Assembly: GCA_947623995.1 (NCBI GenBank)
Contig: CANQIN010000002.1
Location: forward strand, 1 to 51,336
Origin: an uncultured Bacilli bacterium
GTDB lineage: Bacteria; Bacillota_I; Bacilli_A; RF39; UBA660
Length of the DNA: 51,336 bases
Reading direction: 5' to 3'
Shown: one piece after another, positions 10,653 to 34,652 of the stretch
Position numbering within the stretch: the stretch's first letter is position 1
Layout: every line of letters begins with the position of its first letter
Made by a program: the position numbers and the translations under genes
Notes under the pieces: generated by a model
Databases searched by the model: none
What the model was told of the DNA's origin: nothing
What the model saw: only the letters and a program-made list of their open reading frames with translations

Positions 10653-10685
10653 ATTATAACTCTTAAACCCCCCCCCCTGTGTCAA
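10653..10685 (-). promoter_or_regulatory. Switch promoter P1: TTGACA-CA-G10-TTTAAGAGT-TATAAT (21-nt spacer)
   Basis: -35 at 10685-10680; plus-strand C10 at 10668-10677; -10 at 10658-10653. A conserved leader AGAATAGGTGATTTT precedes the ATG at 10629. Confidence 0.7.
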
Positions 10686-10693
10686 CTATTTTC

Positions 10694-10722
10694 TTGCATT
10701 TTTTTATTATTTTTGCTATGAT
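10694..10722 (+). promoter_or_regulatory. Divergent plus-strand promoter (candidate sRNA promoter)
   Basis: TTGCAT (10694-10699), 17 nt, TGc-TATGAT (10717-10722, extended -10). It lies 8 bp from the -35 of P1. Confidence 0.6.
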
Positions 10723-10728
10723 GTATAT

Positions 10729-10850
10729 AGATGAAGGAAACTTCATACAATAAAAAAGAGATATATCTTGAATCGTTCAGATGTAATCCCAAAGTTTTGG
10801 TTATGCATCCGAAATCAACATATGTTGAAATCAGATGCTTTTGTTTTTTA
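10729..10850 (+). ncRNA. Candidate ~120-nt antisense sRNA convergent with the 33-aa peptide ORF
   Basis: It sits between the promoter at 10694-10722 and an intrinsic terminator, GCATCCGAAATCAACATATGTTGAAATCAGATGC (10805-10838) plus TTTTGTTTTTT. A 5' hairpin ATGAAG-GAAA-CTTCAT occupies 10731-10746. The only ORF from its 5' end runs through the terminator, so it is probably non-coding. Confidence 0.4.
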
Positions 10851-10949
10851 TCTTGCGATTAGTAACTTGATTACTATAATCAACAAGATAATTATAATTA
10901 ACAAAAAGATTATTATGCTATTATATAAAGCAAATTCTCTTTTAGACAT
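10848..10949 (-). CDS. 33-aa hydrophobic peptide (type I toxin-like candidate)
   Basis: SD GGCGGTGAT lies upstream of the ATG at 10949. The peptide is MSKREFALYNSIIIFLLIIIILLIIVIKLLIAR. Its stop codon is overlapped by the T-tract of the convergent terminator. Confidence 0.4.
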   Translation of the reverse strand: MSKREFALYNSIIIFLLIIIILLIIVIKLLIAR

Positions 10950-11027
10950 GTAATCACCGCCTTGCATTTTTAATAGTTAAAAATAAAAGGGGAAAACATC
11001 TGATCAACTCTCAATGTATCCAATATA

Positions 11028-11056
11028 ATTGTAACAAACTTTATTTTATAAAACAA
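11028..11056 (-). promoter_or_regulatory. Promoter of the 33-aa peptide transcript
   Basis: TTGTTT (11056-11051), 17 nt, TGt-TACAAT (11033-11028). The homologous element is at 13039-13067. Confidence 0.5.
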
Positions 11057-11085
11057 TATTTATGACATTTTGCCACACTTATAAA

Positions 11086-11172
11086 TTTAATTTTTTAAAT
11101 AGAAATATCTGATAATAAATGTTGTTTCATTACCTTTAGAATCTACCATAATAGTTCCTTTACTTTTTAGGT
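11086..11172 (-). pseudogene. Orphan copy of the 3' end of the histidine kinase gene (duplication scar)
   Basis: Translates as KSKGTIMVDSKGNETTFIIRYFYLKN*, compared with the true HK C-terminus SNGTIMVDSKDNETTFIIRYFY* at 13104-13190. No upstream HK sequence is present. Confidence 0.65.
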
Positions 11173-11248
11173 TTATTAGATAAATTAAAAATCTAGTATG
11201 TTTTTTTATTTACACACCAGATCCAGATTATACACTATCAACTTAATA

Positions 11249-12619
11249 CTACCGTGCAATGAACGGTGTTCCTTTTTCACCATTTCCATCTATAATTTTT
11301 GTAGAAGATTTTAGATATACAACAGGCAAAATATCACCATAATCACCTTCTCCAGCTGAGCAGCTACCGATACCAAAATCCATACTCACACAAAACACAG
11401 TATTACCATAATCTGCTGCTGGAGTAATTGTAAATGCATCATAGCCTAGCATTAACCAATCATTTGTGTTACAACTATCACTAACATATGAAACCATACT
11501 TTTTCCTAAACATATTTCTCTTACTTCTCTTCCTACAGCATATCCGTAGTCACTAGGATAAATTAAGCCTATATATCCATCCCATGTTGTTGTTCTTTCT
11601 ACTTCATCATTACAATATCTATTATTACTCTCACATTGTTCCTTACCATTATGAGTACTTCTTTCTCCCTCATACATATATTTTGCTGATATTTTGCTAC
11701 TATAATATTTTTCACCTATCGTTCCCGTATTCCATCTTACTTTAGCTATCTTTTTCTTTGCTTCTTCACTTATTCCACTACTTGTAAAATCACATGGCTT
11801 ATAACTACTGTTATTTTTATAACAATATCCATTTTCCCTATTCCAATACAAACTTCTTCCTATTTCTGGGATTCCACTATATATATCTTGAGGATTTAAT
11901 AATTTCATTATATCTGCTTGACTCCATTCATTTACTCCCTGACCATAATTTATTTCTGATTCACTAATATCCCAACTAAAATAACCTATACTTCCTGTTC
12001 TTATTATTTTTAATAAGCTTTCTTGTTGTCCGCCATTATCTAAATTAGTTATATTATTCATGACTCCTATTATTCGCCATAATATTGGATTACCATCACC
12101 ATCACTATCTCCTATATCTATATAATTATTTACATCTGCATCTGCTCCTACATATCTTAGATTTGCATCATTTGTATCATCAACCCATAAATTTGTTGTA
12201 TCTGTTTTAGCTAAATCAATAATATAATCAGCAGCATTTGGCTCATATTCTTTAAAATATAAGCTACATTTGGTTTTACTTTTACTTAAGTTCTTTACTA
12301 TTGGTCCCCATGTTTCACTATCCCATATTATACTGGCTCCATTATCACATTCACCATGGTCAAATACTAAATTTTCTTCATTACCTTTCTGAGGCATTTC
12401 ATCTAATTCTTCATCACCTTTATAAAACGCAAAATAAATATCACTGTTACCAAAATAATCTACTTTTCCCTTCATCATTGGAAACTCTGCACTTTCTGTA
12501 AAAGATGCGAATGTTTTGTATAGAATTAATGATACACTTATTAAGACTATTACACTTATAGTTATTAGTATTGTTCTTCTTCTTTTTTCATTTTTATCAA
12601 CATACTTTTCTAGCTTCAT
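11249..12619 (-). CDS. Paralog family member, class-I N-module with type-a C-module
   Basis: N-terminus MKLEKYVDKNEKRRRTILITISVIVLISVSLILYKTFASFTESAEFPMMKGKVDYF. N-module ..GECDNGASIIWDSETWGPIVKNLSKSKTKCSLYF. C-module motifs NNYIDIGDSDGDGNPILWRIIGVMNN, NGKEQCE, YCNDEVERTTTWDGYIGLIYPSDYGYA and PVVYLKS. Confidence 0.85.
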   Translation of the reverse strand: MKLEKYVDKNEKRRRTILITISVIVLISVSLILYKTFASFTESAEFPMMKGKVDYFGNSDIYFAFYKGDEELDEMPQKGNEENLVFDHGECDNGASIIWDSETWGPIVKNLSKSKTKCSLYFKEYEPNAADYIIDLAKTDTTNLWVDDTNDANLRYVGADADVNNYIDIGDSDGDGNPILWRIIGVMNNITNLDNGGQQESLLKIIRTGSIGYFSWDISESEINYGQGVNEWSQADIMKLLNPQDIYSGIPEIGRSLYWNRENGYCYKNNSSYKPCDFTSSGISEEAKKKIAKVRWNTGTIGEKYYSSKISAKYMYEGERSTHNGKEQCESNNRYCNDEVERTTTWDGYIGLIYPSDYGYAVGREVREICLGKSMVSYVSDSCNTNDWLMLGYDAFTITPAADYGNTVFCVSMDFGIGSCSAGEGDYGDILPVVYLKSSTKIIDGNGEKGTPFIAR

Positions 12620-12642
12620 TTTATCACTCTATTCTTAGAGTA

Positions 12643-12674
12643 ATTATAACCCTTAACCCCCCCCCCTATGTCAA
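12643..12674 (-). promoter_or_regulatory. Switch promoter P2: TTGACA-TA-G10-TTAAGGGT-TATAAT (20-nt spacer)
   Basis: -35 at 12674-12669; plus-strand C10 at 12657-12666; -10 at 12648-12643. Leader AGAATAGAGTGATAAA precedes the ATG at 12619. Confidence 0.7.
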
Positions 12675-12682
12675 CTATTTTC

Positions 12683-12711
12683 TTGCATTTTTTTATTATT
12701 TTTGCTATGAT
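12683..12711 (+). promoter_or_regulatory. Divergent plus-strand promoter (second copy)
   Basis: TTGCAT (12683-12688), 17 nt, TGc-TATGAT (12706-12711). It lies 8 bp from the -35 of P2. Confidence 0.6.
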
Positions 12712-12717
12712 GTATAC

Positions 12718-12856
12718 AGATGAAGGAAACTTCATATAATAAAAAAGAGATATATCTAATTATTCGTGTAATTGGATACTCTCCAAAAAAGTTTTTGTTT
12801 TTTTTGAAAAAGCCCTTTTAACACAAATGAGTGAAAAGGTGCTTTTTCTTTTTATT
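12718..12856 (+). ncRNA. Candidate ~140-nt antisense sRNA, second copy
   Basis: The first ~45 nt match the 10729 copy (the ATGAAG-GAAA-CTTCAT hairpin), then the sequences diverge. The terminator AGCCCTTTTAACAC..GTGAAAAGGTGCT (12811-12843) plus TTTTTCTTTTT ends 5 nt before the convergent peptide stop codon. Confidence 0.4.
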
Positions 12857-12860
12857 CAGT

Positions 12861-12962
12861 TTATTTAAAAATTAATAAAAACATTAGCATAAATACTAAT
12901 AGAAATATTAATGTGAATAAAAATTTGATTATATGATAAAAGATGTGTTCTCTTTTATTCAT
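12861..12962 (-). CDS. 33-aa hydrophobic peptide (type I toxin-like candidate), second copy
   Basis: Strong SD AAGGAGG lies 6 nt before the ATG at 12962. The peptide is MNKREHIFYHIIKFLFTLIFLLVFMLMFLLIFK. Confidence 0.45.
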   Translation of the reverse strand: MNKREHIFYHIIKFLFTLIFLLVFMLMFLLIFK

Positions 12963-13038
12963 AAACATCCTCCTTTCCATAATAATTTAATTATATATGG
13001 TGGAGAGCACCTAACACTTAATTAGATATATCATTATA

Positions 13039-13067
13039 ATTATAGCAAACTTTATTTTATAAAACAA
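13039..13067 (-). promoter_or_regulatory. Promoter of the second 33-aa peptide transcript
   Basis: TTGTTT (13067-13062), 17 nt, TGc-TATAAT (13044-13039). Confidence 0.5.
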
Positions 13068-13103
13068 TATTTATGCATTTTACCACATTTATAAATTTAT
13101 TTT

Positions 13104-14306
13104 TTAATAAAAATATCTGATAATAAACGTTGTTTCATTATCTTTAGAATCTACCATAATAGTTCCATTGCTTTTTAATATAATAGCTTTTGCTAAAGAA
13201 AGCCCTATTCCTATACTTTCTTTTAAAGAAGAATCATAATGATAAAATCTTTCAAATAAATGTTTTTTATCTTCACTACTTAAAACTTTTCCATAATTAG
13301 TTATCTTAACTTCACTATAAAGATTATTTTCTTCTAAATTAATTAATACTTCACTTTTCTTTTTAGAATGTTCAATAGCATTTTTTAAAATATTAGTAAT
13401 TGCTTCTACATTCCAATCTTTATCACAATTAATAGTTGTTTTATTTTTTCCTTTTACAATAATTTTAATATCTTTTAAATCACATAAAGAAGAAACATTT
13501 AAAATTGCTTTATTAATAATGGTAATTAAATTATGAGGTTCACTTTTAAATTCAATCATATTAACTTCTAATTTTGATAATTTTAATAAATTAGTTATTA
13601 AAAATTTCATATTATTTATTTCTCTTTTAATACTTCTTAAAGCTTCTTCTTTTTTAATATCAAGATTTTCTTCATCAAGTATATTATCAACAGTAATTAA
13701 TATGGCTGTTAAAGGAGTTTTTAATTGATGAGTTATATTTTCTAATGATTCTTTTAATTCTAATTTATCTTTTTTAGAATTAATAGCTGTTTCTTTTAAC
13801 ATAACGGTTGTCTTATAAATTTCATCTCTTAATTTAGATAATTCATCTTCACTCATACTTTCTAATTTTAAAGAATAATTCTGATTATTAAGTTCTTTTA
13901 AATAATTAGTTATTTCATTTAATTCTTTATTTCTTTTTCTAAAATATAATCTAAATAAATATATAATAATTAATAAACTTAAAAAGATAAAAGCAAAATT
14001 TAAATAATTAAAATAATTTTTTAAAGAATTATTTTTTAAAATTACTGATTCTTCATTAATATCAATACTATACTTTTTTAAAAATTCTTCATTAAAATTA
14101 TTAGAATTTAAGATGTTAATAAGTTCATTATCTTCAATATGATATTTTTCTTTTACATTATTTATAATACTAACAATTGCTAAATTATAATTTTTAGTTA
14201 AGCTTTTATTTTCTAATGATATTAAAACAACTAAAGTAACACTTAGAGTAAGACTAACAATTAAACTTAAAAGATAATATTTTTTTAATTTAAGATTATT
14301 CTTCAT
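13104..14306 (-). CDS. Sensor histidine kinase (two TM helices, HisKA plus HATPase_c)
   Basis: H-box ITHQLKTPLTAI, N-box NILKNAIEHS and G-box-like GIGLSLAKAI. It overlaps the response regulator gene by 11 nt. Confidence 0.85.
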   Translation of the reverse strand: MKNNLKLKKYYLLSLIVSLTLSVTLVVLISLENKSLTKNYNLAIVSIINNVKEKYHIEDNELINILNSNNFNEEFLKKYSIDINEESVILKNNSLKNYFNYLNFAFIFLSLLIIIYLFRLYFRKRNKELNEITNYLKELNNQNYSLKLESMSEDELSKLRDEIYKTTVMLKETAINSKKDKLELKESLENITHQLKTPLTAILITVDNILDEENLDIKKEEALRSIKREINNMKFLITNLLKLSKLEVNMIEFKSEPHNLITIINKAILNVSSLCDLKDIKIIVKGKNKTTINCDKDWNVEAITNILKNAIEHSKKKSEVLINLEENNLYSEVKITNYGKVLSSEDKKHLFERFYHYDSSLKESIGIGLSLAKAIILKSNGTIMVDSKDNETTFIIRYFY

Positions 14307-14943
14307 CTATCCGATACCCTATTCCTTTCAATGTATTAACAATATCACTATCTAATTTTTTCTTTAAACGATTAAAATAAACCGTTACAGTATGATCATC
14401 AACATCATTGCCAGTTAAATTCCAGATTGTATCAAGTATCATACTCCTTGATACAACATGATTAAGATTTAAAAATAAAAGATTTAAGAGTTGAAGCTCT
14501 AAGGGTGTTAAAGAAAGGGGAATATTATTTTTATAAACAATCATTTTATCAAAATCATAAGTAATATCTTTTACTTTAATAATATTCTTATTTATTTTTA
14601 AAATTTTATTGATACGCGCAATTAATTCTTTGATACTAAAAGGTTTAGTAAGATAATCATCAGCTCCCATATTAAGACCATTTACAATATCTTCTTCAGA
14701 ATCAAAAGCTGTTAAAATAATAGTCGGAATATTAATCTTTTTAATAACATTTTTAAAGAAATCAAAACCATTACCATCAGGCAAAGAAATATCTAAAATT
14801 ATTAAATTAGGTTTAGTAGATTCTAGATATTTCCTTGCTAAAGATAAAGATGTTTTAACAATAAGTTCATAACCATTTTTTTCTAATGATTCTTTAAGAG
14901 ACTTTCCAATATTGATATTATCTTCAATTAATAATATTTTCAT
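14296..14943 (-). CDS. OmpR/PhoB-family response regulator
   Basis: Receiver domain MKILLIEDN..ILDISLPDGNG..LTA..KPF. The C-terminal winged-helix region is LTPLELQLLNLL..GIGYRI. Confidence 0.9.
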   Translation of the reverse strand: MKILLIEDNINIGKSLKESLEKNGYELIVKTSLSLARKYLESTKPNLIILDISLPDGNGFDFFKNVIKKINIPTIILTAFDSEEDIVNGLNMGADDYLTKPFSIKELIARINKILKINKNIIKVKDITYDFDKMIVYKNNIPLSLTPLELQLLNLLFLNLNHVVSRSMILDTIWNLTGNDVDDHTVTVYFNRLKKKLDSDIVNTLKGIGYRIDEE

Positions 14944-14974
14944 CACTCATCACTCCTTTAGTATACTAAAAAAG

Positions 14975-17554
14975 TTAAATATTTTCATTACGAATTGTTT
15001 CAATTATATTTTGTTTCTTTATTTTATTTAAAGAATAGTTCATAATTAAATTAATAATTAAGAAAACTACTACAAAACAGATAATTATACTTAAATAAGG
15101 AATAGGAAATTTAGCCCCTTCACTACTTAATAATTTATGAATTATAAATGATAAGATAAGACCAATAGGAACACCAAATAATAAGGCTTTTACCCCAATA
15201 AAAATACTTTCTAATCTAATCATTTTTTGAAATTCTTTACTAGTCATACCAATTGATTTTAAAATCGCAAATTCTGGTTTTCGTAAATTCATATTAGTAG
15301 TAATTGTATTAAAAATATTAGTTATTCCAATTAATGATATAACAATTATAAAGCCATATAAGAAAATAGCAATTAATGTATATAAGTTTTTCATCATTTG
15401 ATAATTTTCTTCTAAATTATTAAGATTATAATTAGTATCTTTTAACATTACATCAATATCATCTTGTAATTTATTTGGGTCACTTGATAATAAATAAATT
15501 GCTAAGTTTTCATCTTTATATAAACTACTTGCATATTCATTACTAATTACAAGCATTTCGGATAAATAATTTTGAAGTCCAAAAGGTTTTTGATTAGTAA
15601 CATACGCAATAGGAAGATTAAGGTTTTTATCAAAAACATTAAGATTAATTAATTCATTTTGCTGATAATCAAAACTTCGTAATACATATTTTTCCACTTT
15701 ATCATTAGCATCTTGTTTTCTAATTTGTAATTCATCAATTAAGATTCCTTCATCTTTTACTTCATCATAATTAAGATTTAGAGAGTCTAAATATTTACGA
15801 TACTGATAATCTCCTAAAGTAACAAGTAAGATTCGATCACTTTCATAAGATTTAAGATTAAGAAGTTTAATATAATCAGGATTATATTTAGGTTTAATAA
15901 TATCAACATCATTACTAGAAATTACACTATAGTCATTAATGGTATCTAAATTAGTAATATTTTTAATAGTTTCAAAATTATTAATATCAGTAGAAGTTAA
16001 TGATAAATTAAATTCAATACTATTTATTTCATCTTTAACTGCTACAAAAGCAACGTTAATAAATGTTGATAAAGCAATAAAGACAAAGATGGATACAATT
16101 AAAGATATAACCGTTGTCCGATATTTCTTTTTATTTCTTTTTATATTTTTATAAGATATCTCGCCACCAATACCAAAGAAGTGATTAATTAATTTTGGAC
16201 TTCTTAATTTATTACCTTTAATTTTAATTTCTCCACTATTACGTAAAGAAGAAATAGGCGAAATCTTACCTGCTTTACGGGCACTTTTAAAAGCTGAAAA
16301 ATAAACAGTTACAATTCCTAGGATAATCGCAATTAAACAAGCAAGATAAGAGAATTTAAAAACTAATTTTAAATCAGTAGCTAACATATCCTTTAAAAAA
16401 TAATTACTTACCTCTACTAAAATGAAAGATGCTAAAAGACCAAATAATAAACCAAAGATAATTCCAACAACTCCTAAAATACTAGCTTCAAAGAAAACAT
16501 TTTTTCTAATTTGTTTTTTAGTAGCTCCAATACTTTTTAACATACCATATTGTTTAATTTTTTCCGTTATCGAAATATCAAAGCTATTTTTAATACAAAA
16601 AACACTTGAAACAATAATAATTAAACAAACAATAATAATTACAAAACCTAAACCACCAATCCCACTATTATTAATAGGATCAGTTTGCAATGATATTAGA
16701 TAATCATTTATATTAATTTGATATTTAGCTTTCGATATTTCCTTTATAATATCTTTTTTATCATCTTCATGATAAGTTCCATTATAGTATATTTTATAAG
16801 TTTCTTCATCAATACCTAAAATATTAGCTGTGGTATTCAAATAATTTTTTAAGTCTTTTTTCTTATACAATGTATAGACATTAACATTACTATTTATTTC
16901 ATTTTCATTTACATGAGTTATAAATGTGTAACCAGGTGCTTCATAAGATTCAATATTACTAGCTGGTCTTGATATAATTCCAACTATTTTATAAGTAATC
17001 GGTTTAGTATCAATAATTTTTTCATTTCTTTGATAAGGATTATTTTGCTTTAAAATAACATTATCATCAAGATTAATTCTTTTACCAACATCTAAGGTTA
17101 TTTCATCCCCAATATTTAATTCTAAACGCCCATTAGTTTTTAAATGCATGGGAATCACAATTTCATGATCATTTAAAGGTAGTCTTCCATTAACTAAATT
17201 AATTGATAAATTTTCTAAAGAATCATTAGTAAATCCTTTAACAAAAGCATAAGGCTTATCTTCATTTTTTGTGTTTATCTTGGCATATCCAACATCACTA
17301 GTTAAAAAAATCTTTTCTACTTGCCGATTATTTTTAATGTTATCAACTTCTTTTATGGGCACATCATAAAAACTAACATGAAAGTTGCCTCTTTCTTTGG
17401 TTTCAAATAAAACTAAAGATGATAATAAACTTGCATACATTGTACATACAGCCGTTACTAACGCAACAGATAAAGTAATCCCAATAATAGTCACAATGGT
17501 TCTTTTCTTATTTAAGGATAGATTTTTAATTGTTAATTTTTTAAACAGATTCAT
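14975..17554 (-). CDS. ABC transporter permease with two FtsX-type domains (BceB/MacB-like)
   Basis: 859 aa with multiple TM segments. The motif (M/I)LKSIG(A/M)T(K/S)K(Q/E) occurs twice, each time after a large extracytoplasmic region. Confidence 0.8.
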   Translation of the reverse strand: MNLFKKLTIKNLSLNKKRTIVTIIGITLSVALVTAVCTMYASLLSSLVLFETKERGNFHVSFYDVPIKEVDNIKNNRQVEKIFLTSDVGYAKINTKNEDKPYAFVKGFTNDSLENLSINLVNGRLPLNDHEIVIPMHLKTNGRLELNIGDEITLDVGKRINLDDNVILKQNNPYQRNEKIIDTKPITYKIVGIISRPASNIESYEAPGYTFITHVNENEINSNVNVYTLYKKKDLKNYLNTTANILGIDEETYKIYYNGTYHEDDKKDIIKEISKAKYQININDYLISLQTDPINNSGIGGLGFVIIIVCLIIIVSSVFCIKNSFDISITEKIKQYGMLKSIGATKKQIRKNVFFEASILGVVGIIFGLLFGLLASFILVEVSNYFLKDMLATDLKLVFKFSYLACLIAIILGIVTVYFSAFKSARKAGKISPISSLRNSGEIKIKGNKLRSPKLINHFFGIGGEISYKNIKRNKKKYRTTVISLIVSIFVFIALSTFINVAFVAVKDEINSIEFNLSLTSTDINNFETIKNITNLDTINDYSVISSNDVDIIKPKYNPDYIKLLNLKSYESDRILLVTLGDYQYRKYLDSLNLNYDEVKDEGILIDELQIRKQDANDKVEKYVLRSFDYQQNELINLNVFDKNLNLPIAYVTNQKPFGLQNYLSEMLVISNEYASSLYKDENLAIYLLSSDPNKLQDDIDVMLKDTNYNLNNLEENYQMMKNLYTLIAIFLYGFIIVISLIGITNIFNTITTNMNLRKPEFAILKSIGMTSKEFQKMIRLESIFIGVKALLFGVPIGLILSFIIHKLLSSEGAKFPIPYLSIIICFVVVFLIINLIMNYSLNKIKKQNIIETIRNENI

Positions 17555-19903: not shown

Positions 19904-21622
19904 TTAAAAAGCCAAAACAAGTCGAAAACTATCCCATTTTGCTAAACTGCCATATGCTTCATAAGAACGGAATATACCAGAACCAATGCCATCAGTGAAA
20001 TGGCCACCACGTCTAACCCATGGTCCAGCCGAATAGACAATCCAAGCCTCATCGTCATACCAACTGCCTACATATCTTGACTGTGTTAAATACTTCATAC
20101 TTTGGAACGGGCCCATTTCTTTTGTTGCATCTCCTAAAAAGCTTCGATTATATGATGTATTGCTTGTACTATAAGCGTATTTATCATAATATCTTTCATC
20201 GGTTGGTAAGGCAATTCCTTCTGTTACTTCTGAAATATTGTGATTTATTTCTACTCCACTATCATTACATTCTGGACATGTTAATTTTCCTATAAATCCT
20301 GAATTATATGCATTATGCCGTCCTGATGATAATTTTCCAGTATGACCATCTCCTGTTGAATTGTCATCCATTCCAGCCATCATAGTTTCCCAAGATCCTC
20401 CACTCATGTCATATATTCCACTGTAATTTCCAGTTGTACTTGCTACCACACTTGCTTTATTAAAATAATTGGTGTTATACTCACCATCAGCTCCAGGTGA
20501 TGATACACCTCCATATTCATTGCAAGCATCAGGTGTATTACTACATAACTCATTTGTTCCTGTATATCCTGTAGTTGGTTCACGTATTGCAGCATAACCT
20601 GTTAAATAATTGGAATTATTATTGATTCTTACACTTTCATGACTTCCATACACACTATGTTGTAAATAGGCTACGGCTCCCCATTCACTATTTTTCATCA
20701 TATGACTTTTTAAAGACTCTTCATAATGTAATCCCACTATGTATGCTTTTGCTACTTGAATACTTCTCCATGAATATACATTTGGTTTAATTATGACTTT
20801 ATTTGCTGCTTCTATAGAAGCTGCTTCATCACTAGGATTTATCTCTGCAACTTGTGTTCTTTCTGCTCCATCATATCCAGTTTCAAATTTTCCTACCCAT
20901 ATTCCATTGGTATTAAATGATGTGAAGGCTGGATGGGTTAACCATTCACCTTGTTTACTTCCATTTTGTACTTCTTCATCTTTTGTTTCAAATATCACAT
21001 TAATTATTTGTTCTTTATTTGTTTTCGTTGTTAATCCATTATAATTTCCTTCATCAAATATTTGATATCGATATCTGGGGATCCATACAAAATAACTTTC
21101 AATATCTCTTTCTTCTATTGGTTCATTTTCTCCTGGGTCTTCTACACCACTTCTTAATATGACTGCATTTGCCCACTTTTGAGCTCTATAATCATACCAC
21201 TTTTCTTTTTCACTTGCTCTTGTTACTAGTCCATTTTCTTCATTTATTACTATTGGTATTAATTTACTACTTAATTCTGGATCTGCTCCATTTAATTCTC
21301 TATCTATATATTTATTATTAAAATATAAAGTACACTTAGTTTTATTTTTTCTTAAATTCTTTATTAATGGAGCCCATTCTTCACTATTCCATTCAATACT
21401 TGCTCCATTATCACATTCTCCATCTATATAAACTAATCCTTCACTATTTTCTTTACTTGGCATTTCACTTATTTTTTCTTTTCCTTTATAAAAGGCTATA
21501 TCTATATTTTCATTACTATTTTCATTTATTAATAATTTTTCATAGTTTGTAAATGTTAATATATTTAATCCACTTATTAATATCACAATAATTATTAACA
21601 TTATATTTAATTTTTTCTTCAT
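19904..21622 (-). CDS. Paralog family member, class-I N-module fused to an unrelated FGE-sulfatase/SUMF1-like C-domain (type d)
   Basis: N-module IAFYKGKEKISEMP..GECDNGASIEWNSEEWAPLIKNLRKNKTKCTLYF. The C-terminal part has HPAF..GIWVGKFE, GIYDMSGGSWE, RRGGHF and a FRLVLAF end, and lacks the NLRYIG/PSDYGYA motifs. Confidence 0.8.
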   Translation of the reverse strand: MKKKLNIMLIIIVILISGLNILTFTNYEKLLINENSNENIDIAFYKGKEKISEMPSKENSEGLVYIDGECDNGASIEWNSEEWAPLIKNLRKNKTKCTLYFNNKYIDRELNGADPELSSKLIPIVINEENGLVTRASEKEKWYDYRAQKWANAVILRSGVEDPGENEPIEERDIESYFVWIPRYRYQIFDEGNYNGLTTKTNKEQIINVIFETKDEEVQNGSKQGEWLTHPAFTSFNTNGIWVGKFETGYDGAERTQVAEINPSDEAASIEAANKVIIKPNVYSWRSIQVAKAYIVGLHYEESLKSHMMKNSEWGAVAYLQHSVYGSHESVRINNNSNYLTGYAAIREPTTGYTGTNELCSNTPDACNEYGGVSSPGADGEYNTNYFNKASVVASTTGNYSGIYDMSGGSWETMMAGMDDNSTGDGHTGKLSSGRHNAYNSGFIGKLTCPECNDSGVEINHNISEVTEGIALPTDERYYDKYAYSTSNTSYNRSFLGDATKEMGPFQSMKYLTQSRYVGSWYDDEAWIVYSAGPWVRRGGHFTDGIGSGIFRSYEAYGSLAKWDSFRLVLAF

Positions 21623-21649
21623 CTTATAATCACTCTATTCTATAGAGTA

Positions 21650-21681
21650 ATTATAACCCATAACCCCCCCCCCTGTGTCAA
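21650..21681 (-). promoter_or_regulatory. Switch promoter P3: TTGACA-CA-G10-TTATGGGT-TATAAT (20-nt spacer)
   Basis: -35 at 21681-21676; plus-strand C10 at 21664-21673; -10 at 21655-21650. The ATG is at 21622. Confidence 0.7.
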
Positions 21682-21742
21682 TATTTAATTATTATTTTAA
21701 ACCACTTTTAACTATAATTTTTTTAAGAAAATTATTATTCAT

Positions 21743-25598: not shown

Positions 25599-26945
25599 TC
25601 AAAATGTTAATCGAAAAGGATTATCTATTGAACCGTAATTATCACTTTCATCTGATTCAATATAGACTTTATTATTTAAATATACAGTTGGTAAAATATT
25701 TGCTTCCTGATTTACATCACCCCAATAAATACCACTCATAGTAGAACTTATAGCAGTTTTATTAGAATTATCAAAATGAGTAGTTAAAAACCAATGACTA
25801 TCAGTATACAACCAATTAATATTTTCAATTGTATAACATGTACTATCAAAATCTAGTAATTTTTTTTCTAAGCAAGTTTCTCTATCATTTGCAACTGCAT
25901 AGCCATAATCTGATGGATAAATTAACCCAACTCCATTATGATATTTTGAATCATTTTCTCTGGTCCATACACTTGGATAGCCACTTTCTTTTACTGAAAC
26001 ACTTCTTTCTTTTTCATACATCGTTGGTGCATTATATATATCATTTGGTTCACCCAAATTCCATATAACATCTTTATCAATCATCAGCCTTGCTTCTTCA
26101 TTTAATCCTTTTGAATTTATATTATCTTGAGTAAAATCACATTCTGTTGGAATAGGATTATTTACATCTTGATAGCAATCACCAATCTCACTATTATAAT
26201 ATATGCCATTTAACATATCTTTTAAAGTTGAAGTTGTCCAATCATTATTATATGTAGATTTATAATCCCAACTATAATATCCTAAATCATCCATAAAGTG
26301 AAAATCTTCATTTTCATCAGTCCAAAATACATTTGAAATTCTTGTTAATTTTACTCTTTGTTCTATTCCACTATCAGTTTGAACGTTTACGAGTCCAATA
26401 ATTCTCCATATTTCATCATTAAATGCTATATAATTATTAGGATCTTCTCCAGCATATCGATATTCTATTTTATTCCAGCCACTATCTATTTCAGTAACAC
26501 TATGATCTACTTTATACAATCCATCACCAGTCTCTACAATAGGAATATCTCTATTTAATTGAAAACCAGTTTGTTCTTTAAAATATAAGCTACACTTTGT
26601 CTTTACTTTTTTTAATCCTTTTACTAATGGGGCCCATTCATTGTTGTTCCATTCAATACTTGCTCCATTATCACATTCACCATGGTCAAATACTAAATTA
26701 TCTGGATTATCTTTTACTGGCATCGTATCTAACTGTTCATCACCTTTATAGAATGCAAAATAAATATCGCTATTACCAAAATAATCAACTTTTCCTTTCA
26801 TCATTGGAAATTCTGCACTTTCCGTAAAACTTGCAAAGGTTTTATATAGAAGTAATGAGACACTTATTAAGACTATTACACTTATACTTATCAATATTGT
26901 TTTTCTTCTTTTCTTACTTTTATCTTCATATTTTTTTAGCTTCAT
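25599..26945 (-). CDS. Paralog family member, class-I N-module with type-b C-module
   Basis: N-terminus ..YKTFASFTESAEFPMMKGKVDYFGNSDIYFAFYKGDEQLDTMP..GECDNGASIEWNNNEWAPLVKGLKKVKTKCSLYF. C-module motifs EYRYAGEDPNNYIAFNDEIWRIIGLVNV, LKDMLNGIYYNSEIGDCY, GLIYPSDYGYA, PTVYL and DNPFRLTF. Confidence 0.85.
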   Translation of the reverse strand: MKLKKYEDKSKKRRKTILISISVIVLISVSLLLYKTFASFTESAEFPMMKGKVDYFGNSDIYFAFYKGDEQLDTMPVKDNPDNLVFDHGECDNGASIEWNNNEWAPLVKGLKKVKTKCSLYFKEQTGFQLNRDIPIVETGDGLYKVDHSVTEIDSGWNKIEYRYAGEDPNNYIAFNDEIWRIIGLVNVQTDSGIEQRVKLTRISNVFWTDENEDFHFMDDLGYYSWDYKSTYNNDWTTSTLKDMLNGIYYNSEIGDCYQDVNNPIPTECDFTQDNINSKGLNEEARLMIDKDVIWNLGEPNDIYNAPTMYEKERSVSVKESGYPSVWTRENDSKYHNGVGLIYPSDYGYAVANDRETCLEKKLLDFDSTCYTIENINWLYTDSHWFLTTHFDNSNKTAISSTMSGIYWGDVNQEANILPTVYLNNKVYIESDESDNYGSIDNPFRLTF

Positions 26946-26967
26946 ATAATCACCTATTCTTAGGTAA

Positions 26968-26998
26968 ATTATAGCATTTACCCCCCCCCCTATGTCAA
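26968..26998 (-). promoter_or_regulatory. Switch promoter P4: TTGACA-TA-G10-TAAATGC-TATAAT (19-nt spacer)
   Basis: -35 at 26998-26993; plus-strand C10 at 26981-26990; -10 at 26973-26968. The ATG is at 26945. Confidence 0.7.
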
Positions 26999-27191: not shown

Positions 27192-27230
27192 TGTCAAGAG
27201 ATTTAAGCATGTTATCATTTTTTAGGCAAA

Positions 27231-27253: not shown

Positions 27254-27254
27254 A

Positions 27255-28421: not shown

Positions 28422-28488
28422 TTTTTGTTTCTCTCCTTTCAGTATTTATTTTATCTAATGCTTGAATTAATTTCAAGTATTATTTAGA

Positions 28489-30564
28489 TTAGTTAACGCT
28501 GTTTTTCTTAATTATTTCTTCAGCGATAGATTTTGGAACTTCTTCATAATGGTCTAATTCCATTGTAAAGTTTCCACGACCTTGAGTATTAGAACGCAAA
28601 CTAGTTGCATAACCAAACATTTCAGCTAATGGAACCATTGCTGTAATAGCTAGGGCATTACCACGTGATTCTTGTCCTAGAGGACGACCACGACGACTTG
28701 TTAAGTCACCCATAACATTACCCATGTATTCATCTGGAACAATAACAGTTACTTTCATGATTGGTTCTAATATTACAGGTTTACATTTATTTTTAGTTTC
28801 TTTAACTGCAAGACTAGCAGCAATTTTGAAAGCCATTTCAGATGAGTCAACATCATGATATGAACCATCAAATAATGTTGCTTTAACATCAACCATTGGG
28901 TATCCAGCAAGTACACCACCGGCCATAGCCTCTTGTAAACCTTTATCTGTTACTGGGATATATTCACGAGGAACAACACCACCAACGATAGCATCAACAA
29001 ATTCATAACCTTTGTCTTTATTTGGTTCAAAACGAACCCATACATGACCATATTGTCCACGTCCACCTGATTGTTTAATATACTTACCTTCACATTCACC
29101 CATTTGAGTAATTGTTTCACGATAAGCAACTTGTGGACGACCAATATTAGCATCAACGTTAAATTCTCTTCTCATTCTTTCAACTTGAACCTCTAAATGA
29201 AGTTCTCCCATACCACTGATAATAGTTTGACCAGTTTCAGGATCAGTTTTATAACGGAAAGTAGGATCTTCTTCAGCTAATTTTTGTAAAGCTGTACCTA
29301 ACTTTTCTTGATCAGCTTTTGATTTTGGTTCAATAGCTTCATCAATAACTGGTAAAGGAAATTCCATACCTTTCATAATAACTGGATGTTTTTCATCACA
29401 TAAAGTATCAGCAGTTGTGGTATTTTTAAGTCCTACAGCAGCGGCAATTTCACCACAATAAACTTCAGATATTTCTTTACGATTATTAGCATGCATTTGT
29501 AGGATACGACCAATACGTTCTTTTTCACCTTTAGTACTATTCATAATGTATGAACCACTAGTTAAATGACCAGAATAAACTCTAAAGAAAGCTAGTCGTC
29601 CAACAAATGGATCAGCCATAATCTTAAATGCTAAAGCTGTAAATGGTTCTGAATCACTTGGATGACGCATAACATCTTCACCAGTTTTAGGATCATAACA
29701 TTCAATAGATGGAACATCAGTAGGAGCAGGTAAATAATCAATTACAGCATCTAATAATAATTTAATACCTTTATTTGATAAAGCATCACCACATAATACT
29801 GGATAAAATTGATTAGATAAAACACCTTTTCTAATTGCACTTTTAATTTCTTCAACACTTAATTCTTCACCATTTAAGTATTTTTCCATTAATTCGTCAT
29901 CAAATTCAACAACAGTTTCAATTAAATCAGCTCTTTTAGTTTCAACTAAATCTTTTAAATCAGCAGGTATTTCAATTTCAACAGCATTTTCTTCTTCTTT
30001 ACCATCATATTGATAAGCTTTTCTTGTAATTAAATCAACAATACCATTAAATTCATTTTCAGCTCCAATAGGCCATTCAATAGGTTTAGCATTTGCTCCT
30101 AATCTTTTAGAAATAGTTTCTAGACTATAAGCAAAATCAGCTCCTAATTTTCCCATTTTATTACACATAATCATTCTTGGAACTTTAAATTCATCTGCTT
30201 GACGCCAAACCGTTTCAGTTTGAGGTTCAACACCAGCTTGAGCATCTAAAAGGGCAACAGCACCATCTAATACTCTAAGACTTCTTGAAACTTCAACAGT
30301 AAAGTCGACATGGCCTGGAGTATCGATAATATTAAAACGATATCCTTTCCAATGCGCTGTAGTTGCAGCAGAGGTAATAGTAATACCACGTTCTTTTTCT
30401 TGATCCATCCAGTCCATTTGTGATTCACCATCGTGAGTTTCACCAATTTTATGAATACGACCAGTATGATATAAAATTCTTTCAGTTGTCGTAGTCTTAC
30501 CAGCATCAATATGAGCCATTATTCCAATATTTCTTACTTTATCAATAGCAACATCTCTAGCCAT
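28489..30564 (-). CDS. fusA: Elongation factor G
   Basis: [23 protein letters not shown] and NKMD motifs; 691 aa. Confidence 0.97.
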
Positions 30565-30575
30565 AATTTACCTCC

Positions 30576-31043
30576 TTACCATCTATAATGAGCAAACGCT
30601 TTATTTGCTTCAGCCATTTTGTGAGTATCTTCACGCTTTTTAACAGCACCACCAGTACCATTGGCAGCATCCATAATTTCATTTGCTAAATTAATAGCCA
30701 TACCTTTACCATTACGGTTTTTAGCATAATTAACAAGCCAACGTAAAGCAAGGGTTTGACTACGGTCTTCACTAACTTCAATTGGAACTTGATAATTAGA
30801 ACCACCAACACGACGAGATTTAACTTCTAGCATTGGTTTAATATTTTCTAAAGCACTTTGATATACTTCCATAGCTGGTTTTCCCGTTTTCTTTTCAACT
30901 ATATCAAATGCTTCATATAAAATCTTTTGAGCAGTTCCTTTTTTACCATCTTGCATAATTTGATTGATTAATTTAGTAACAACCTTGGAATTATATACAG
31001 AATCTGGTAATACATCTCTTTTAATTGCTCTTCTCTTACGCAT
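30576..31043 (-). CDS. rpsG: 30S ribosomal protein S7
   Basis: 155 aa, ending ..[10 protein letters not shown]. It occupies the canonical str-operon position. Confidence 0.95.
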
Positions 31044-31061
31044 ATTATTTTCCTCCTTCTA

Positions 31062-31475
31062 TTATTTTTTAGGTTTTTTAGCTCCGTATTTACTACGTCC
31101 TTGTTTTCGGTTTGCAACACCTTGAGTATCAAGAGTTCCTCTAACAACGTGATAACGAACACCGATTAGGTCTTTAACACGTCCACCACGAATTAAAACA
31201 ACACTATGTTCTTGAAGGTTATGTCCTTCACCTGGAATATAAGTATCTACTTCTTTACCATTAGAAAGTCTAACACGAGCATATTTACGTAATGCTGAGT
31301 TCGGTTTCTTAGGGGTTTTAGTACCAACACGAGTACATACGCCACGTTTTTGAGGACTTGGATTATTAGTTTGTTTTCTTTCTAAAGTATTCATTCCGAC
31401 ATTTAAAACGGGACTTTTACTCTTCTTAGTTTTCTTACTTCTTCCTTTTTTAACAAGTTGATTAATAGTAGTCAT
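31062..31475 (-). CDS. rpsL: 30S ribosomal protein S12
   Basis: [12 protein letters not shown].., [10 protein letters not shown] and RGGRVKDL motifs. Confidence 0.95.
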
Positions 31476-31571
31476 ATTTTCTCCTTTCCATTAACACACT
31501 TCCTGGTGTATCAATCATTACTTTAAATAAGGTTTTACCAAATGTAAAACCAAATTTAACAATGTGCATTA

Positions 31572-31601
31572 ACTATACCACTATAGTTTATGAGTTGTCA
31601 A
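31572..31601 (-). promoter_or_regulatory. str operon promoter
   Basis: TTGACA (31601-31596), 18 nt, TGg-TATAGT (31577-31572). A ~90-nt leader follows, containing the hairpin GGTTTTAC-ATTTG-GTAAAACC. Confidence 0.6.
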
Positions 31602-31689
31602 ACAAAAAATAGCAAAAAACCATAATAAATTCTTAAAGAATAAGGAAAATATTTAAAAAAACATCAAATTTTTAAATTAAATATAGTTA

Positions 31690-33015
31690 CTATTGAACTG
31701 ATAATACAAAAGGCGAATTTATATCTCCTGTTCCATCAACAATTTTTGTAGAAGTTGTTAAATATAAAGTTGGCCAAACCATAATTTCGGAATTGACACG
31801 ATAATCACTGCTAGTTACCCAACCTTCATATTCTACATAGAATGCATGATTGGAATCATTAGAATCTAGTGATAAAGTCCATAGACAATAATAGGGACTT
31901 GGAGTTAACCAATCATTTGTATAGCAATTACCTCCATCATAATCATATAAATTTTTGACTAAACAATTATTCCTTACTTCTCCTCCTACGGCATAACCGT
32001 AATCACTTGGATAAATTAAGCCTATTCCATTATGCTTTTCTCCTACATCTGTTTCAATACTCCATTCACTTGGATATGTATTACTACTTCCTGTACTTGT
32101 TCCCCTTTCTTTTTCATAAAATTGTTTTGCTGTTATTGTCTCTGTATCCCATCCACCTATATTCCAGCTTACTTCTTTATCTATCATATTTCTTGCTGTA
32201 TCATCTAATCCTTTTGGTAAAATTGCTCCTGTATTAAAATCACACTGGCTTACTATACCACTACTGCTATTATAGCAATCTCCTATTCCACTTTCATAGT
32301 ATATTCCATTCAGCATATCTTTTAATGACGAAGTATTCCAATTATTAGTATCTGTATCCCAATAATACTGGCCAAAATCCTTTTGGCCTTTTACACCATC
32401 TTGTCTTACTATTTTTAGTCTTTGCTCTATTCCACTTTCAGTTTTTACATTTACTAAACCTATAATTCGCCAGATTTCATTATTAAAGAATACATAATTA
32501 TCTGGATCAGCTCCAGCATATCGATATTCAGTTTGATTCCATTCTTGACCAAGTTCTTCTAAATCATCATGAGTTACGACATAAAGTCCATCTCCACTTT
32601 CTACTACTGGTATTTTCATTCCGCCTAATTCTACACCTACTTGTTCTTTAAAATATAAACTACATTTAGTCTTACTTTTACTTAAATTTTTAACCATTGG
32701 TCCCCATTTTTCACTATTCCATTCGATTGTTGCTCCATTATCACATATTCCATGGTCAAATACCAAATTTTCTTCATTACCATTCTGAGGCATTTCATCT
32801 AATTGTTCATCACCTTTATAGAACGCAAAATAAATATCACTATTACCAAAATAATCTACTTTACCTTTCATCATAGGAAATTCAGCACTTTCAGTAAAAC
32901 TTGCAAAGGTTTTATATAATAGAAAAGAAACACTTATTAACACTATTACACTAATGGTTATTAGTATTGTTTTTCTTGTTTTACTATTCTTATCAACATA
33001 CTTTTCTAGCTTCAT
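31690..33015 (-). CDS. Paralog family member, class-I N-module with type-b C-module
   Basis: Same N-terminus and N-module as 25599-26945 (..GICDNGATIEWNSEKWGPMVKNLSKSKTKCSLYF). C-module motifs EYRYAGADPDNYVFFNNEIWRIIGLVNV, LKDMLNGIYYESGIGDCY and GLIYPSDYGYAVGG. Confidence 0.85.
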   Translation of the reverse strand: MKLEKYVDKNSKTRKTILITISVIVLISVSFLLYKTFASFTESAEFPMMKGKVDYFGNSDIYFAFYKGDEQLDEMPQNGNEENLVFDHGICDNGATIEWNSEKWGPMVKNLSKSKTKCSLYFKEQVGVELGGMKIPVVESGDGLYVVTHDDLEELGQEWNQTEYRYAGADPDNYVFFNNEIWRIIGLVNVKTESGIEQRLKIVRQDGVKGQKDFGQYYWDTDTNNWNTSSLKDMLNGIYYESGIGDCYNSSSGIVSQCDFNTGAILPKGLDDTARNMIDKEVSWNIGGWDTETITAKQFYEKERGTSTGSSNTYPSEWSIETDVGEKHNGIGLIYPSDYGYAVGGEVRNNCLVKNLYDYDGGNCYTNDWLTPSPYYCLWTLSLDSNDSNHAFYVEYEGWVTSSDYRVNSEIMVWPTLYLTTSTKIVDGTGDINSPFVLSVQ

Positions 33016-33038
33016 TTTATCACTCTATTCTTAGAGTA

Positions 33039-33071
33039 ATTATAAACTTTAAAACCCCCCCCCCATGTCAA
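33039..33071 (-). promoter_or_regulatory. Switch promoter P5: TTGACA-T-G10-TTTTAAAGTT-TATAAT (21-nt spacer)
   Basis: -35 at 33071-33066; plus-strand C10 at 33055-33064; -10 at 33044-33039. The ATG is at 33015. Confidence 0.7.
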
Positions 33072-33262
33072 GTTTGAAAATATTACTTTATACCACTCTC
33101 AATAAATTTTCAAAATATTAAATTTTTAAAAAATATGTTGCAATGTACAACAATTAAAAAACGAACTAGCCCTTTAGTTACTTGGGCTTACTCATTTTTA
33201 CTGTCAAAGTCAAGTTAAGATCTAAATTTTTTCTATTTACAATATACTTTAATCTAAAATAT

Positions 33263-34597
33263 TTATGATTCTAAAATAAATGGATTATCAATTGTTCCAT
33301 ATTCTTTTTCAGGTTTAGAATTCGGAAGTATTTTAACATTATTTTTTAAATATAGTGTTGGCCAAACGCCTTTACTGTATAGACCAGAATTACGCACATA
33401 TCCATACAAACCAATATAAAATGCACCACGTGAGTATGAAGAATTAGGTGTTAAAGACCATGAATCGCCATCAATAGGTTTTAACCAGTCAGTTCCAGCA
33501 CATTCACTTTGATAATTTATAATATTATTTTCCCAGTTATATAATTCTTTTGTAAAGCATGCTTCCCTTCCTAAATTACCTCCATTAGTCGCATAACCAT
33601 AGTCACTTGGATAAATTAATCCTATTCCATTATGTTTTCCTAATGGATCATTTTTATTACTCCATTCAATTGGATAATCGCTATTTCCAGTTACACTTCC
33701 CCGTTCTTTCTCATAAAAAACATTTACTAAAACATCATTTTCTGGAAAAACTCCTCCAATATTCCAAATTACTTCTTTATCTATCATTTTTCTTGCAGTT
33801 TCATCTAAGCCTTTTGGCAAATTACTGTTTCCTGTGAAATCACATTCATTTTGAGTATCTTGATTTTCATTAATTACTGGAAAACATTCACCTATCGTAC
33901 TTTCATAATATATGCCATTTAACATATCTTTTAATGTTGAAGTATTCCAATTGTTTACATATCTATCCCAAACATAGTTTCCAAAATTTTTTTGAGCATC
34001 AATACCATCGGTTCTCACAATTTTAATTCTTTGTTCTATACCTCTTGCAGTTGCAACATTTACTAAGCCTATTATTCGCCATGTCTCATTATTAAATTTG
34101 ACATAATTATTTGGATTAGAACCTGCATATCGATATTCTATTTTATTCCATTCTTTATTTATTCCATTTACTTCATGACTTACTTTATACAGTCCATCTC
34201 CACTTTCAATTGTTGAAACATTTTTTATAAAATCTATTCCTGATGATTGCCTAAAATATAAAGCACACTTAGTTTTACTTTTACTTAAATTCTTTACTAA
34301 TGGGGCCCATTCTACTTCATCCCAAAGAACATATGCACCATTGTCACATTTTCCATAATCAAAAACTAAATCTTCATTATTATCTTTATCTGGCATTTCA
34401 TCTATTTGTTCTTCTCCTTTATAAAATGCAAAATAATCTACTTTTCCCTTCATCATTGGAAATTCTTCACTTTCGGTAAAAGATGCAAATGTGTTATATA
34501 ACAAAAAAGAAATACTTATTAAGACTATTATGCTTATAGTTATTAGTATTGTTTTTCTTCTTTTTTTATCTTTATTATTATTCTTTTCTAGCTTCAT
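33263..34597 (-). CDS. Paralog family member, class-I N-module (7-codon deletion variant) with type-b C-module
   Basis: ..FASFTESEEFPMMKGKVDYFAFYKGEEQ.. lacks GNSDIYF. The rest includes GKCDNGAYVLWDEVEWAPLVKNLSKSKTKCALYF, EYRYAGSNPNNYVKFNNETWRIIGLVNV and GLIYPSDYGYA. Confidence 0.85.
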   Translation of the reverse strand: MKLEKNNNKDKKRRKTILITISIIVLISISFLLYNTFASFTESEEFPMMKGKVDYFAFYKGEEQIDEMPDKDNNEDLVFDYGKCDNGAYVLWDEVEWAPLVKNLSKSKTKCALYFRQSSGIDFIKNVSTIESGDGLYKVSHEVNGINKEWNKIEYRYAGSNPNNYVKFNNETWRIIGLVNVATARGIEQRIKIVRTDGIDAQKNFGNYVWDRYVNNWNTSTLKDMLNGIYYESTIGECFPVINENQDTQNECDFTGNSNLPKGLDETARKMIDKEVIWNIGGVFPENDVLVNVFYEKERGSVTGNSDYPIEWSNKNDPLGKHNGIGLIYPSDYGYATNGGNLGREACFTKELYNWENNIINYQSECAGTDWLKPIDGDSWSLTPNSSYSRGAFYIGLYGYVRNSGLYSKGVWPTLYLKNNVKILPNSKPEKEYGTIDNPFILES

Positions 34598-34620
34598 TTT
34601 ATCACTCTATTCTTAGAGTA

Positions 34621-34652
34621 ATTATAAACCTATACCCCCCCCCCTATGTCAA
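34621..34652 (-). promoter_or_regulatory. Switch promoter P6: TTGACA-TA-G10-TATAGGTT-TATAAT (20-nt spacer)
   Basis: -35 at 34652-34647; plus-strand C10 at 34635-34644; -10 at 34626-34621. The ATG is at 34597. Confidence 0.7.

Follow-up and report, generated by a model that had tools for sequence, protein, structure and literature searches.

Poly-G tracts as probable slipped-strand switches in the promoters of a predicted surface-protein family from an uncultured RF39 bacterium

A stretch of 51,336 nucleotides from an uncultured Bacilli bacterium of the RF39 lineage (assembly GCA_947623995.1, contig CANQIN010000002.1, positions 1 to 51,336; the whole stretch is called the window here) harbors a family of paralogous genes for predicted surface proteins, six of which are each preceded by a promoter-like module with a run of exactly ten G between the -35 and -10 hexamers. 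As judged from the sequence comparisons described below, these G10 tracts most probably represent slipped-strand contingency switches, which would act on the individual paralogs via the spacing of the two hexamers. Switches of this kind are known, and the novelty concerns the lineage of the host, the family of proteins and the size of this family, not the mechanism.

The window has a G+C content of 26%, and its class-I genes, i.e., the tract-bearing type, are encoded on the minus strand, with the tracts appearing as C10 runs on the plus strand. All six runs, which had been pointed out in an earlier reading of the DNA made from the sequence alone (the sequence-only reading), are indeed present, and no other run of G or C in the 51 kb exceeds 5 nt, as that reading had also claimed; the remaining runs of at least 5 nt consist of four C5 and one G5. 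Matches to C8 occur 18 times, compared with a mean of 0.07 in 100 dinucleotide-preserving shuffles. The layout on the minus strand is the same in all six cases and agrees with the earlier description, consisting of TTGACA, 1-2 nt (T, TA or CA), the G10 tract, another 7-10 nt and TATAAT, both hexamers being perfect. The ATG follows 22-27 nt downstream of the -10 box and is preceded by a ribosome-binding site reading GGTGAT or GAGTGAT. Because the six G10 tracts are the sole long G/C runs in DNA of this base composition and all lie between perfect hexamers, they are not chance occurrences, but are tied to the promoters.

The individual modules, all on the minus strand, are located as follows. 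That of copy 1 extends over positions 10627-10685 (TTGACA 10680-10685, G10 10668-10677, TATAAT 10653-10658, ATG 10627-10629) with a spacer of 21 nt, and that of copy 2 over 12617-12674 (-35 box 12669-12674, G10 12657-12666, -10 box 12643-12648) with a spacer of 20 nt. Copy 3 (21620-21681; -35 box 21676-21681, G10 21664-21673, -10 box 21650-21655) also shows a 20-nt spacer, copy 4 (26943-26998; 26993-26998, 26981-26990 and 26968-26973, respectively) a 19-nt spacer and a TGC in front of the -10 box, making it an extended -10 element. The modules of copy 5 (33013-33071; 33066-33071, 33055-33064 and 33039-33044) and copy 6 (34595-34652; 34647-34652, 34635-34644 and 34621-34626) contain spacers of 21 and 20 nt, respectively, and all six spacer values are those given in the sequence-only reading. 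The tracts are situated 41-46 nt 5' of the ATG and, hence, outside the open reading frames; a placement inside the coding region, where length changes would cause frameshifts, is absent from the window. All pairs of the type TTGACA-N(10-30)-TATAAT in the whole window belong either to these six promoters or to a seventh related module, while a general consensus promoter scan had no discriminating power in DNA so rich in A+T (165 sites compared with 156 expected). An alternative -35 box 17 nt 5' of TATAAT was considered and rejected, the corresponding hexamer of copy 2 (ACATAG) matching at 0 of 6 positions, and no Rfam match was obtained for the window as a whole, indicating that the leaders do not represent a known RNA family.

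Some of the modules share a further element, the box AGTGGTTTAAAATAAT, which ends about 10 nt 5' of the -35 box and occurs on the minus strand at 21691-21706 (copy 3), 33082-33097 (copy 5), 34663-34678 (copy 6), 38011-38026 (class-II gene b) and 44943-44958 (the module of a pseudogene). It is also found in the relatives L005, L109 and L112-L119, and is missing at copies 1, 2, and 4. This box could be an UP element or an activator site.

Other promoters of the window provide a standard for the expected spacing. The rpsL promoter reads TTGACA-N18-TATAGT (with TG), and those of the class-II genes d and e read TTGCTA-N17-TATACT. Since these ordinary promoters have spacers of 17-18 nt, the 19-21 nt of the tract-bearing modules are off the optimum. 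TTGACA and TATAAT are presumably the promoter elements in use, and tract length is expected to control transcription, as suggested by the normal spacing of 17-18 nt in this DNA and by the experimental precedents discussed below. Each class-I gene would then possess a module of its own, in which the consensus -35 and -10 boxes enclose a pure G10 tract and a short leader with a GGTGAT-type ribosome-binding site leads to the ATG. Being pure and longer than the about 7-8 nt from which a homopolymer can slip, a G10 tract should behave as a hypermutable simple-sequence repeat that gains or loses single G by replication slippage, and every such change would shift both the distance and the helical phase between the two boxes, altering transcription of the adjoining gene in a heritable and reversible manner. 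With a separate tract for every paralog, the cells of one population would express different subsets of the family, and the six tracts of the window are accordingly predicted to vary within populations. At G10, the genes are probably weakly expressed or OFF, and successive contraction to lengths between G9 and G7 would increase expression in steps; the length corresponding to ON, like the OFF state at G10, is a prediction of this model. Because both hexamers are perfect consensus sequences, promoters with G8-G9 (spacers of 18-19 nt) may plausibly show some activity, and a graded response is more probable than a binary one.

The family extends far beyond the window. Relatives were collected by a search with the paralog alignment, using one genome per species, which revealed more than 566 family members across the species representatives; tract counts refer to the best 80 of these loci. 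The best 80 are derived from metagenome-assembled genomes (MAGs) labeled "uncultured Bacilli" or "uncultured Tenericutes" from rabbit and human gut, with single MAGs contributing 17-22 loci each. A protein search yielded 484 relatives at E < 1e-30, all of them unnamed, the nearest being 77% identical. The 80 loci contain 50 tracts of at least 7 G, all in sense orientation relative to the family gene, with lengths of G7 (1), G8 (3), G9 (10), G10 (31), G11 (4), and G13 (1). The 5' region is visible for 61 family genes, of which 37 carry such a tract and two more an interrupted version, GGGAGGGGGG. Tracts in the promoter spacer are found at L005, L025, L033, L034, L048, L052, L053, L055, L058, L060, L062, L065 and L075. 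The sequence-only reading had regarded the class-II paralogs as free of tracts, which is correct for the window but does not hold for the relatives, where class-II-type genes with tracts in the promoter or coding region occur (L025, L036, L043, L047, L072). A scan of JGI metagenome contigs with a leader pattern independent of tract length gave only two unrelated chance matches.

In several of the relatives (isolates Lapin-022__bin17, Lapin-022__bin59, UMGS1217 and others), the tract is located inside the coding region instead (L015-L029, L037, L039, L043, L046, L047, L071, L073, L074). In one such layout, it lies 81 nt past the ATG in the region encoding the signal peptide, MRIDKFKEKNNKKKLMTFAVALGVMCA-GGG-YLINRSYA..., and the reading frame is maintained with G9 or G12, while G10 and G11 lead to a stop within about 5 codons. 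Only 2 of 24 coding-region tracts are in frame (L037 with G9; L047 at 5200 with G11), and the other 22 are out of frame, mostly with G10; the binomial probability of at most two in frame is 0.005 against an expected one-third, a generous test in view of the fact that paralogs of one MAG are not independent. The presence of tracts at two non-homologous control points of one family indicates that switchability is likely a selected property.

Tract purity can also be followed in copies that have decayed. The six modules of the sequence-only reading have to be supplemented by a seventh one (44932-44902, minus strand), which reads TTGACA-T-GGAGGATAGG-TCAAGAGC-TATAAT with a spacer of 19 nt and contains an impure 10-nt tract, GGAGGATAGG. 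It precedes a class-I 5' fragment, which is frameshifted and ends after about 190 nt; module and fragment together cover 44690-44932 (TTGACA 44927-44932, tract 44916-44925, TATAAT 44902-44907, ATG 44877-44879). A 284-aa open reading frame with a sortase-like ...LTLSTCQ... motif is located just 5' of this module (45113-45967, minus strand). The promoter of class-II gene b (37962-38026, minus strand; gene at 36372-37964) represents a tract-less version of the same module, in which an 11-nt deletion took out the tract to leave TTGACG-TTATGAGC-TATAAT with a spacer of 8 nt, while the upstream box (38011-38026) is retained in the form AGTGGTTTAAAATGAT. These cases support the notion that tract purity follows gene integrity, with GGAGGATAGG at the pseudogene and complete loss of the tract at class-II gene b. 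The interrupted tract GGGAGGGGGG mentioned above is situated at two intact relative genes (L054, about position 2348, and L075, about position 2447; isolate Lapin-012__bin22) in the layout TTGATA-C-GGGAGGGGGG-TATTATTATAAA, which has a spacer of 17 nt if TATAAA is the -10 box, and may represent a natural, locked form of the switch.

The decayed copies bear on the possibility that the tracts are passive passengers, i.e., that an ancestral G run in the promoter was spread by duplication or gene conversion and plays no regulatory role. The module of about 60 nt is common to the paralogs and the relatives, and the six tracts should therefore not be counted as six independent events. However, the spacer sequence beside the tract varies among the copies (7-10 nt), while the tract itself is pure, and it is exactly at the pseudogene that this purity disappears. 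A neutral G10 run in DNA of 26% G+C should decay fast, and a passenger would not account for the second, non-homologous tract position in the coding regions of sister genomes. We therefore consider it improbable that the tracts have merely been carried along.

The most direct evidence for length variation comes from three family proteins whose identical sequences are encoded on contigs from 4-8 samples of one ENA study. For P0053, the tract is G9 in L105 and L108, and G10 in L104, L106, L107, L109, and L110; a single G is the sole difference between L106 and L108 over 2421 nt. P0051 shows G9 in L112 and G10 in L113, L114, and L115, and L112 differs from L114 and L115 by one G and nothing else over 1682 nt. 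P0017 is represented by G9 in L117 and G10 in L116, L118, and L119, one G again being the sole difference over 1639-1934 nt. All three multi-sample loci are, hence, polymorphic, and sample ERZ27249337 contains two of them in the G9 and the third in the G10 state, which fits with switching locus by locus. The idea of a slipped-strand switch put forward in the sequence-only reading is supported by this single-G polymorphism in relatives, by the coding-region tracts, and by the loss of purity at the dead copy.

The same comparison of tract lengths across strains and bins, which had been recommended as a check, turned out differently for the window itself, where five tracts were all found at G10. 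Length variation is shown for the family, but was not seen at the window loci themselves. In the two further assemblies of this strain (ERZ27249377, ERZ27249363), copies 1, 2, 4, 5, and 6 read G10, with G10 being recorded at copy 2 in L001 and L002, at copy 4 in L087, L097, and L099, and at copies 5 and 6 in L003, L004, and L087. For copy 3, the exact look-up yielded no record, probably owing to the calling of another start codon, and the comparison is thus limited to five tracts; exact look-ups of RpsL and elongation factor Tu (EF-Tu) for orthologous loci returned mostly short contigs without paralogs. Besides this result, several other observations weigh against a switch. G10 is in excess, with 31 of 50 tracts in the relatives and six of six in the window, and the length itself may be constrained. 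A spacer of 17 nt would require the loss of 2-4 G, compared with differences of 1-2 nt between the ON and OFF states of textbook cases, and the promoter-type relatives have assembled spacers of almost always 19-22 nt, a clearly ON assembled state never being seen. The TGn extended -10 box of copy 4, which is also present in the P0017 promoter of the relatives, could confer partial independence of the -35 box. Finally, the G9 and G10 calls are taken from consensus contigs, some of them with a coverage of only 6-8x (L105, L108, L117), making miscalls possible, and the frame statistics given above are generous for the reason mentioned there.

Part of this evidence would also be expected if G10 were a fixed-length cis element, either a regulator binding site or a structural spacer required for activation, of conserved length and without any switching. 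The prevalence of G10 in the six window copies, the same-strain assemblies and 31 of the 50 relative tracts would agree with such an element, as would the total of 10 nt still kept by the decayed and interrupted versions and the steady assembled spacers of 19-22 nt without scatter around 17 nt; the box AGTGGTTTAAAATAAT about 10 nt 5' of the -35 box in some promoters additionally hints at an extra factor. On the other hand, homologous promoters contain 8-13 G, and three loci show no change over 1.6-2.4 kb apart from one G. Binding to a promoter element would make no sense for tracts in coding regions, where length sets the frame, and a pure G10 run is unstable, so that a fixed site should be interrupted, as is seen at two loci. 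A fixed element is therefore quite unlikely, albeit a shade less so than a passive passenger.

For a slipped-strand switch, the excess of G10 may be explained, as a speculation, by long tracts contracting and expressing cells being counter-selected, which would leave the shortest silent length as the prevailing one. This idea fits the coding-region copies, since these are ON at G9 and OFF at G10 rather than at G8. As an alternative, G10 may be a purely mutational equilibrium length.

Errors in sequencing, assembly or polishing might conceivably have produced the tracts or their length differences. Homopolymers are error-prone, the window tracts are all exactly 10 nt long, and the coverage is low for some of the G9 contigs. 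Moreover, MAG contigs end at or inside the tract: those of L028, L038, L072, and L077 start in or near it, those of L059 and L014 end there, and the tract of L034 is at position 10; 19 of the 80 loci lack any region 5' of the gene. These contig ends are suggestive of assemblies breaking where a promoter is repeated and perhaps heterogeneous in length. Against an artefact, the tracts recur in the same context in several projects (MAGs from rabbit, "Lapin", and from human, UMGS and Hadza, as well as ENA contigs of the ERZ2724xxxx series), and the contig names point to more than one assembler. In addition, the G9 contig L112 has a coverage of about 21x, and the coding-region G9 of L037 yields a sensible in-frame protein. 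An artefactual origin is accordingly rated as very improbable.

An element rich in TGTATACA palindromes and of mobile appearance is located exactly at the tract of family promoters at three loci in relatives (L041, positions 4170-4286; L006, 1-110; L111, 1-75). In L041, TTGACACA-G8 is followed by the element, and in L006 and L111 the element is followed by GG and then by a normal -10 region; the junctions add up to G8 + G2 = 10, with no obvious target duplication. The tract might therefore be regarded mainly as a hotspot for insertion of mobile elements or for promoter-rewiring recombination. However, this concerns three loci only, the element is absent from the window, and the coding-region tracts and the single-G polymorphism would be left unexplained, making insertion more likely a secondary consequence of the tract. 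A role primarily as a hotspot appears as improbable as an artefact.

A slipped-strand switch in these promoters can be compared with several characterized systems. Since GTDB places the mycoplasmas in the class Bacilli, the vlp genes of Mycoplasma hyorhinis would be the phylogenetically nearest precedent. As summarized in PMC10502178 with reference to Citti and Wise (1995), every vlp promoter contains a homopolymeric A tract, in which insertions and deletions switch each gene ON or OFF independently. Both cases consist of a multigene family for surface proteins (predicted ones in the present case) with a homopolymer promoter for each gene, but the vlp tracts are poly-A instead of poly-G, and the vlp products are lipoproteins of a wall-less host, whereas the class-I proteins lack a lipobox and the genome encodes MurA. 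Moreover, a relationship between the proteins was not found (no Pfam or NCBIfam match of the paralogs), and switching was established experimentally there, while the evidence presented here is comparative only.

In Treponema pallidum, poly-G tracts of about 7-12 nt are present in the promoters of several paralogous surface-protein genes, with length heterogeneity within isolates around one dominant length (PMC7864442). The tract of tp0126 lies in the stretch separating the -35 box from the -10 box, and expression is optimal at a spacing of 17 nt; in tprE, tprG, and tprJ, tracts of up to 8 G are permissive and longer ones cause the OFF state, while for tprL the reporter signal is clearly higher with the G8 than with the G10 promoter (PMC7864442). 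This pattern, in which longer tracts are OFF, parallels the proposed state at G10. Differences are that T. pallidum is a spirochaete with a GC-rich genome and unrelated outer-membrane proteins, and that the tprL tract overlaps the -10 region rather than lying in the spacer; the tracts described here stand out at 26% G+C and are flanked by perfect hexamers. According to the brief account in PMC7864442, porA, with a poly-G spacer tract, and opc, with poly-C at its -35 box, of Neisseria meningitidis are graded from high to no expression by the spacing, and porA expression is lost when the optimal 17 nt are shortened. They also rely on a G or C homopolymer in the core promoter, but are single genes of a Gram-negative pathogen without switches for each paralog, and unlike in porA the assembled states found here are all longer than 17 nt. 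The possibility that an A-form G tract makes a 20-nt spacer act as one of 17 nt was discarded, since the optimum is simply 17 nt in porA and tp0126, both of which contain G tracts. The vlp- and porA-like logic claimed in the sequence-only reading agrees with these comparisons, but independent switches for individual paralogs are no novelty, as they are known from M. hyorhinis vlp and T. pallidum tpr.

The window contains 11 intact genes of the family plus one remnant, amounting to about one-third of the 51 kb, and six of them have their own poly-G promoter. These six are encoded on the minus strand at 9262-10629 (class-I paralog 1, 455 aa), 11249-12619 (class-I paralog 2, 456 aa), 19904-21622 (paralog 3, 572 aa), 25599-26945 (class-I paralog 4, 448 aa), 31690-33015 (class-I paralog 5, 441 aa), and 33263-34597 (class-I paralog 6, 444 aa). 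The products of 441-572 aa share an N-terminal basic and hydrophobic segment and a beta-rich domain; as exemplified by paralog 1, the N-terminal membrane or signal segment is followed by the beta domain and a Cys-rich C-terminal domain. The latter is present in 5 of the 6 tract-bearing paralogs, the exception being paralog 3, which combines the class-I N-terminal domain with a different and longer C-terminal part. A KTFASFTES-type motif follows the N-terminal hydrophobic segment, and conserved Cys residues are located in the domain modeled with high confidence. The five class-II genes encode the same C-terminal domain as class I, but a different N-terminal part. None of the paralogs matched a Pfam or NCBIfam family, none of the 11 in the window contains an HExxH motif or an LPxTG sorting signal, and a lipobox is missing from the first 45 residues of the six class-I proteins. 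An LVGC lipobox-like motif was observed near the N-terminus of class-II c, d, and e (42867-44435, 46740-48404, and 48574-50217, minus strand), not in a and b. The near-identity of d and e over more than 200 nt of upstream sequence points to a possible recent tandem duplication.

An AlphaFold2 model of copy 5, based on an alignment of 28 sequences, reached a mean predicted local distance difference test score (pLDDT) of 84 and a predicted TM-score (pTM) of 0.75. Its sole significant fold match in the PDB is the immunoglobulin A (IgA) peptidase of Thomasclavelia ramosa (9qa6; Foldseek E = 4.6e-7, probability 1.0), with 312 aligned columns, 15% identity and low TM-scores (0.32 and 0.18); a profile search against PDB sequences returned solely spurious 14-3-3 matches. 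The chain of this peptidase includes an N-terminal C-type-lectin-like domain of about 290 residues, which is dispensable for catalysis (PMC12237041). The part matched by copy 5 presumably corresponds to this non-catalytic N-terminal domain, the aligned residues not being reported by the Foldseek run. The likeness is, hence, one of fold, and the host of the peptidase is also a gut member of the Bacilli, whereas the zinc motif of this M64/igalysin enzyme (HExxHxxxGxxD, or HExxH) occurs in 0 of 11 paralogs. As judged from the N-terminal hydrophobic segment with its adjoining motif, the conserved Cys residues and the match to part of a surface-anchored IgA peptidase, the class-I products may be secreted or membrane-anchored proteins with a C-type-lectin-like fold.

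The family genes are interspersed with rpsL, rpsG, fusA, tuf, murA, and genes for a two-component system, an ATP-binding cassette (ABC) transporter and an ISL3 transposase, which identifies the window as chromosomal DNA of a walled bacterium. Copy 4 is located between tuf and murA. In other strains with identical EF-Tu (L098, L100), the same slot (25599-26998 in the window) is occupied by a defence-like AAA_21/RloB gene pair, and copy 4 therefore appears as a variable insert at this site. The ISL3-family transposase gene (34824-36158, minus strand; NCBIfam E = 9e-87) has class-II gene b on one side and the promoter of copy 6 on the other. Since the end of the element (...TTTAGAGCC) adjoins sequence which is also found upstream of copy 3, it was inserted just 5' of an intact module.

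A search of the literature on phase variation in RF39, gut Firmicutes and rabbit MAGs revealed no prior description of such a system. The reports found on homopolymer-based phase variation concern pathogens (Neisseria, Campylobacter, Helicobacter, Treponema, and mycoplasmas), and those found for gut commensals concern invertible promoters in Bacteroidales. As a tentative picture, to which we give rather less than an even chance, small-genome gut Bacilli of rabbits and humans might possess tens of poly-G-switched lectin-like surface paralogs per genome, with the tracts placed in promoters or signal-peptide regions and the genes mostly OFF, G10 being the length at rest and exceeding the ON length by one or a few steps. 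Engagement of host IgA or glycans by these proteins, as suggested by the structural resemblance to the N-terminal, non-catalytic domain of an IgA peptidase from the gut, would turn the family into a device for immune evasion or niche sampling. If the switches work as proposed, much of the diversity at the surface of these organisms would go unseen in consensus genomes, family genes called in MAGs would often be "frameshifted" by design, and fragmented assemblies, with contigs ending at or in the tracts, would be partly explained. The family would also provide testable candidates for host-interaction determinants in a group without a cultured model.

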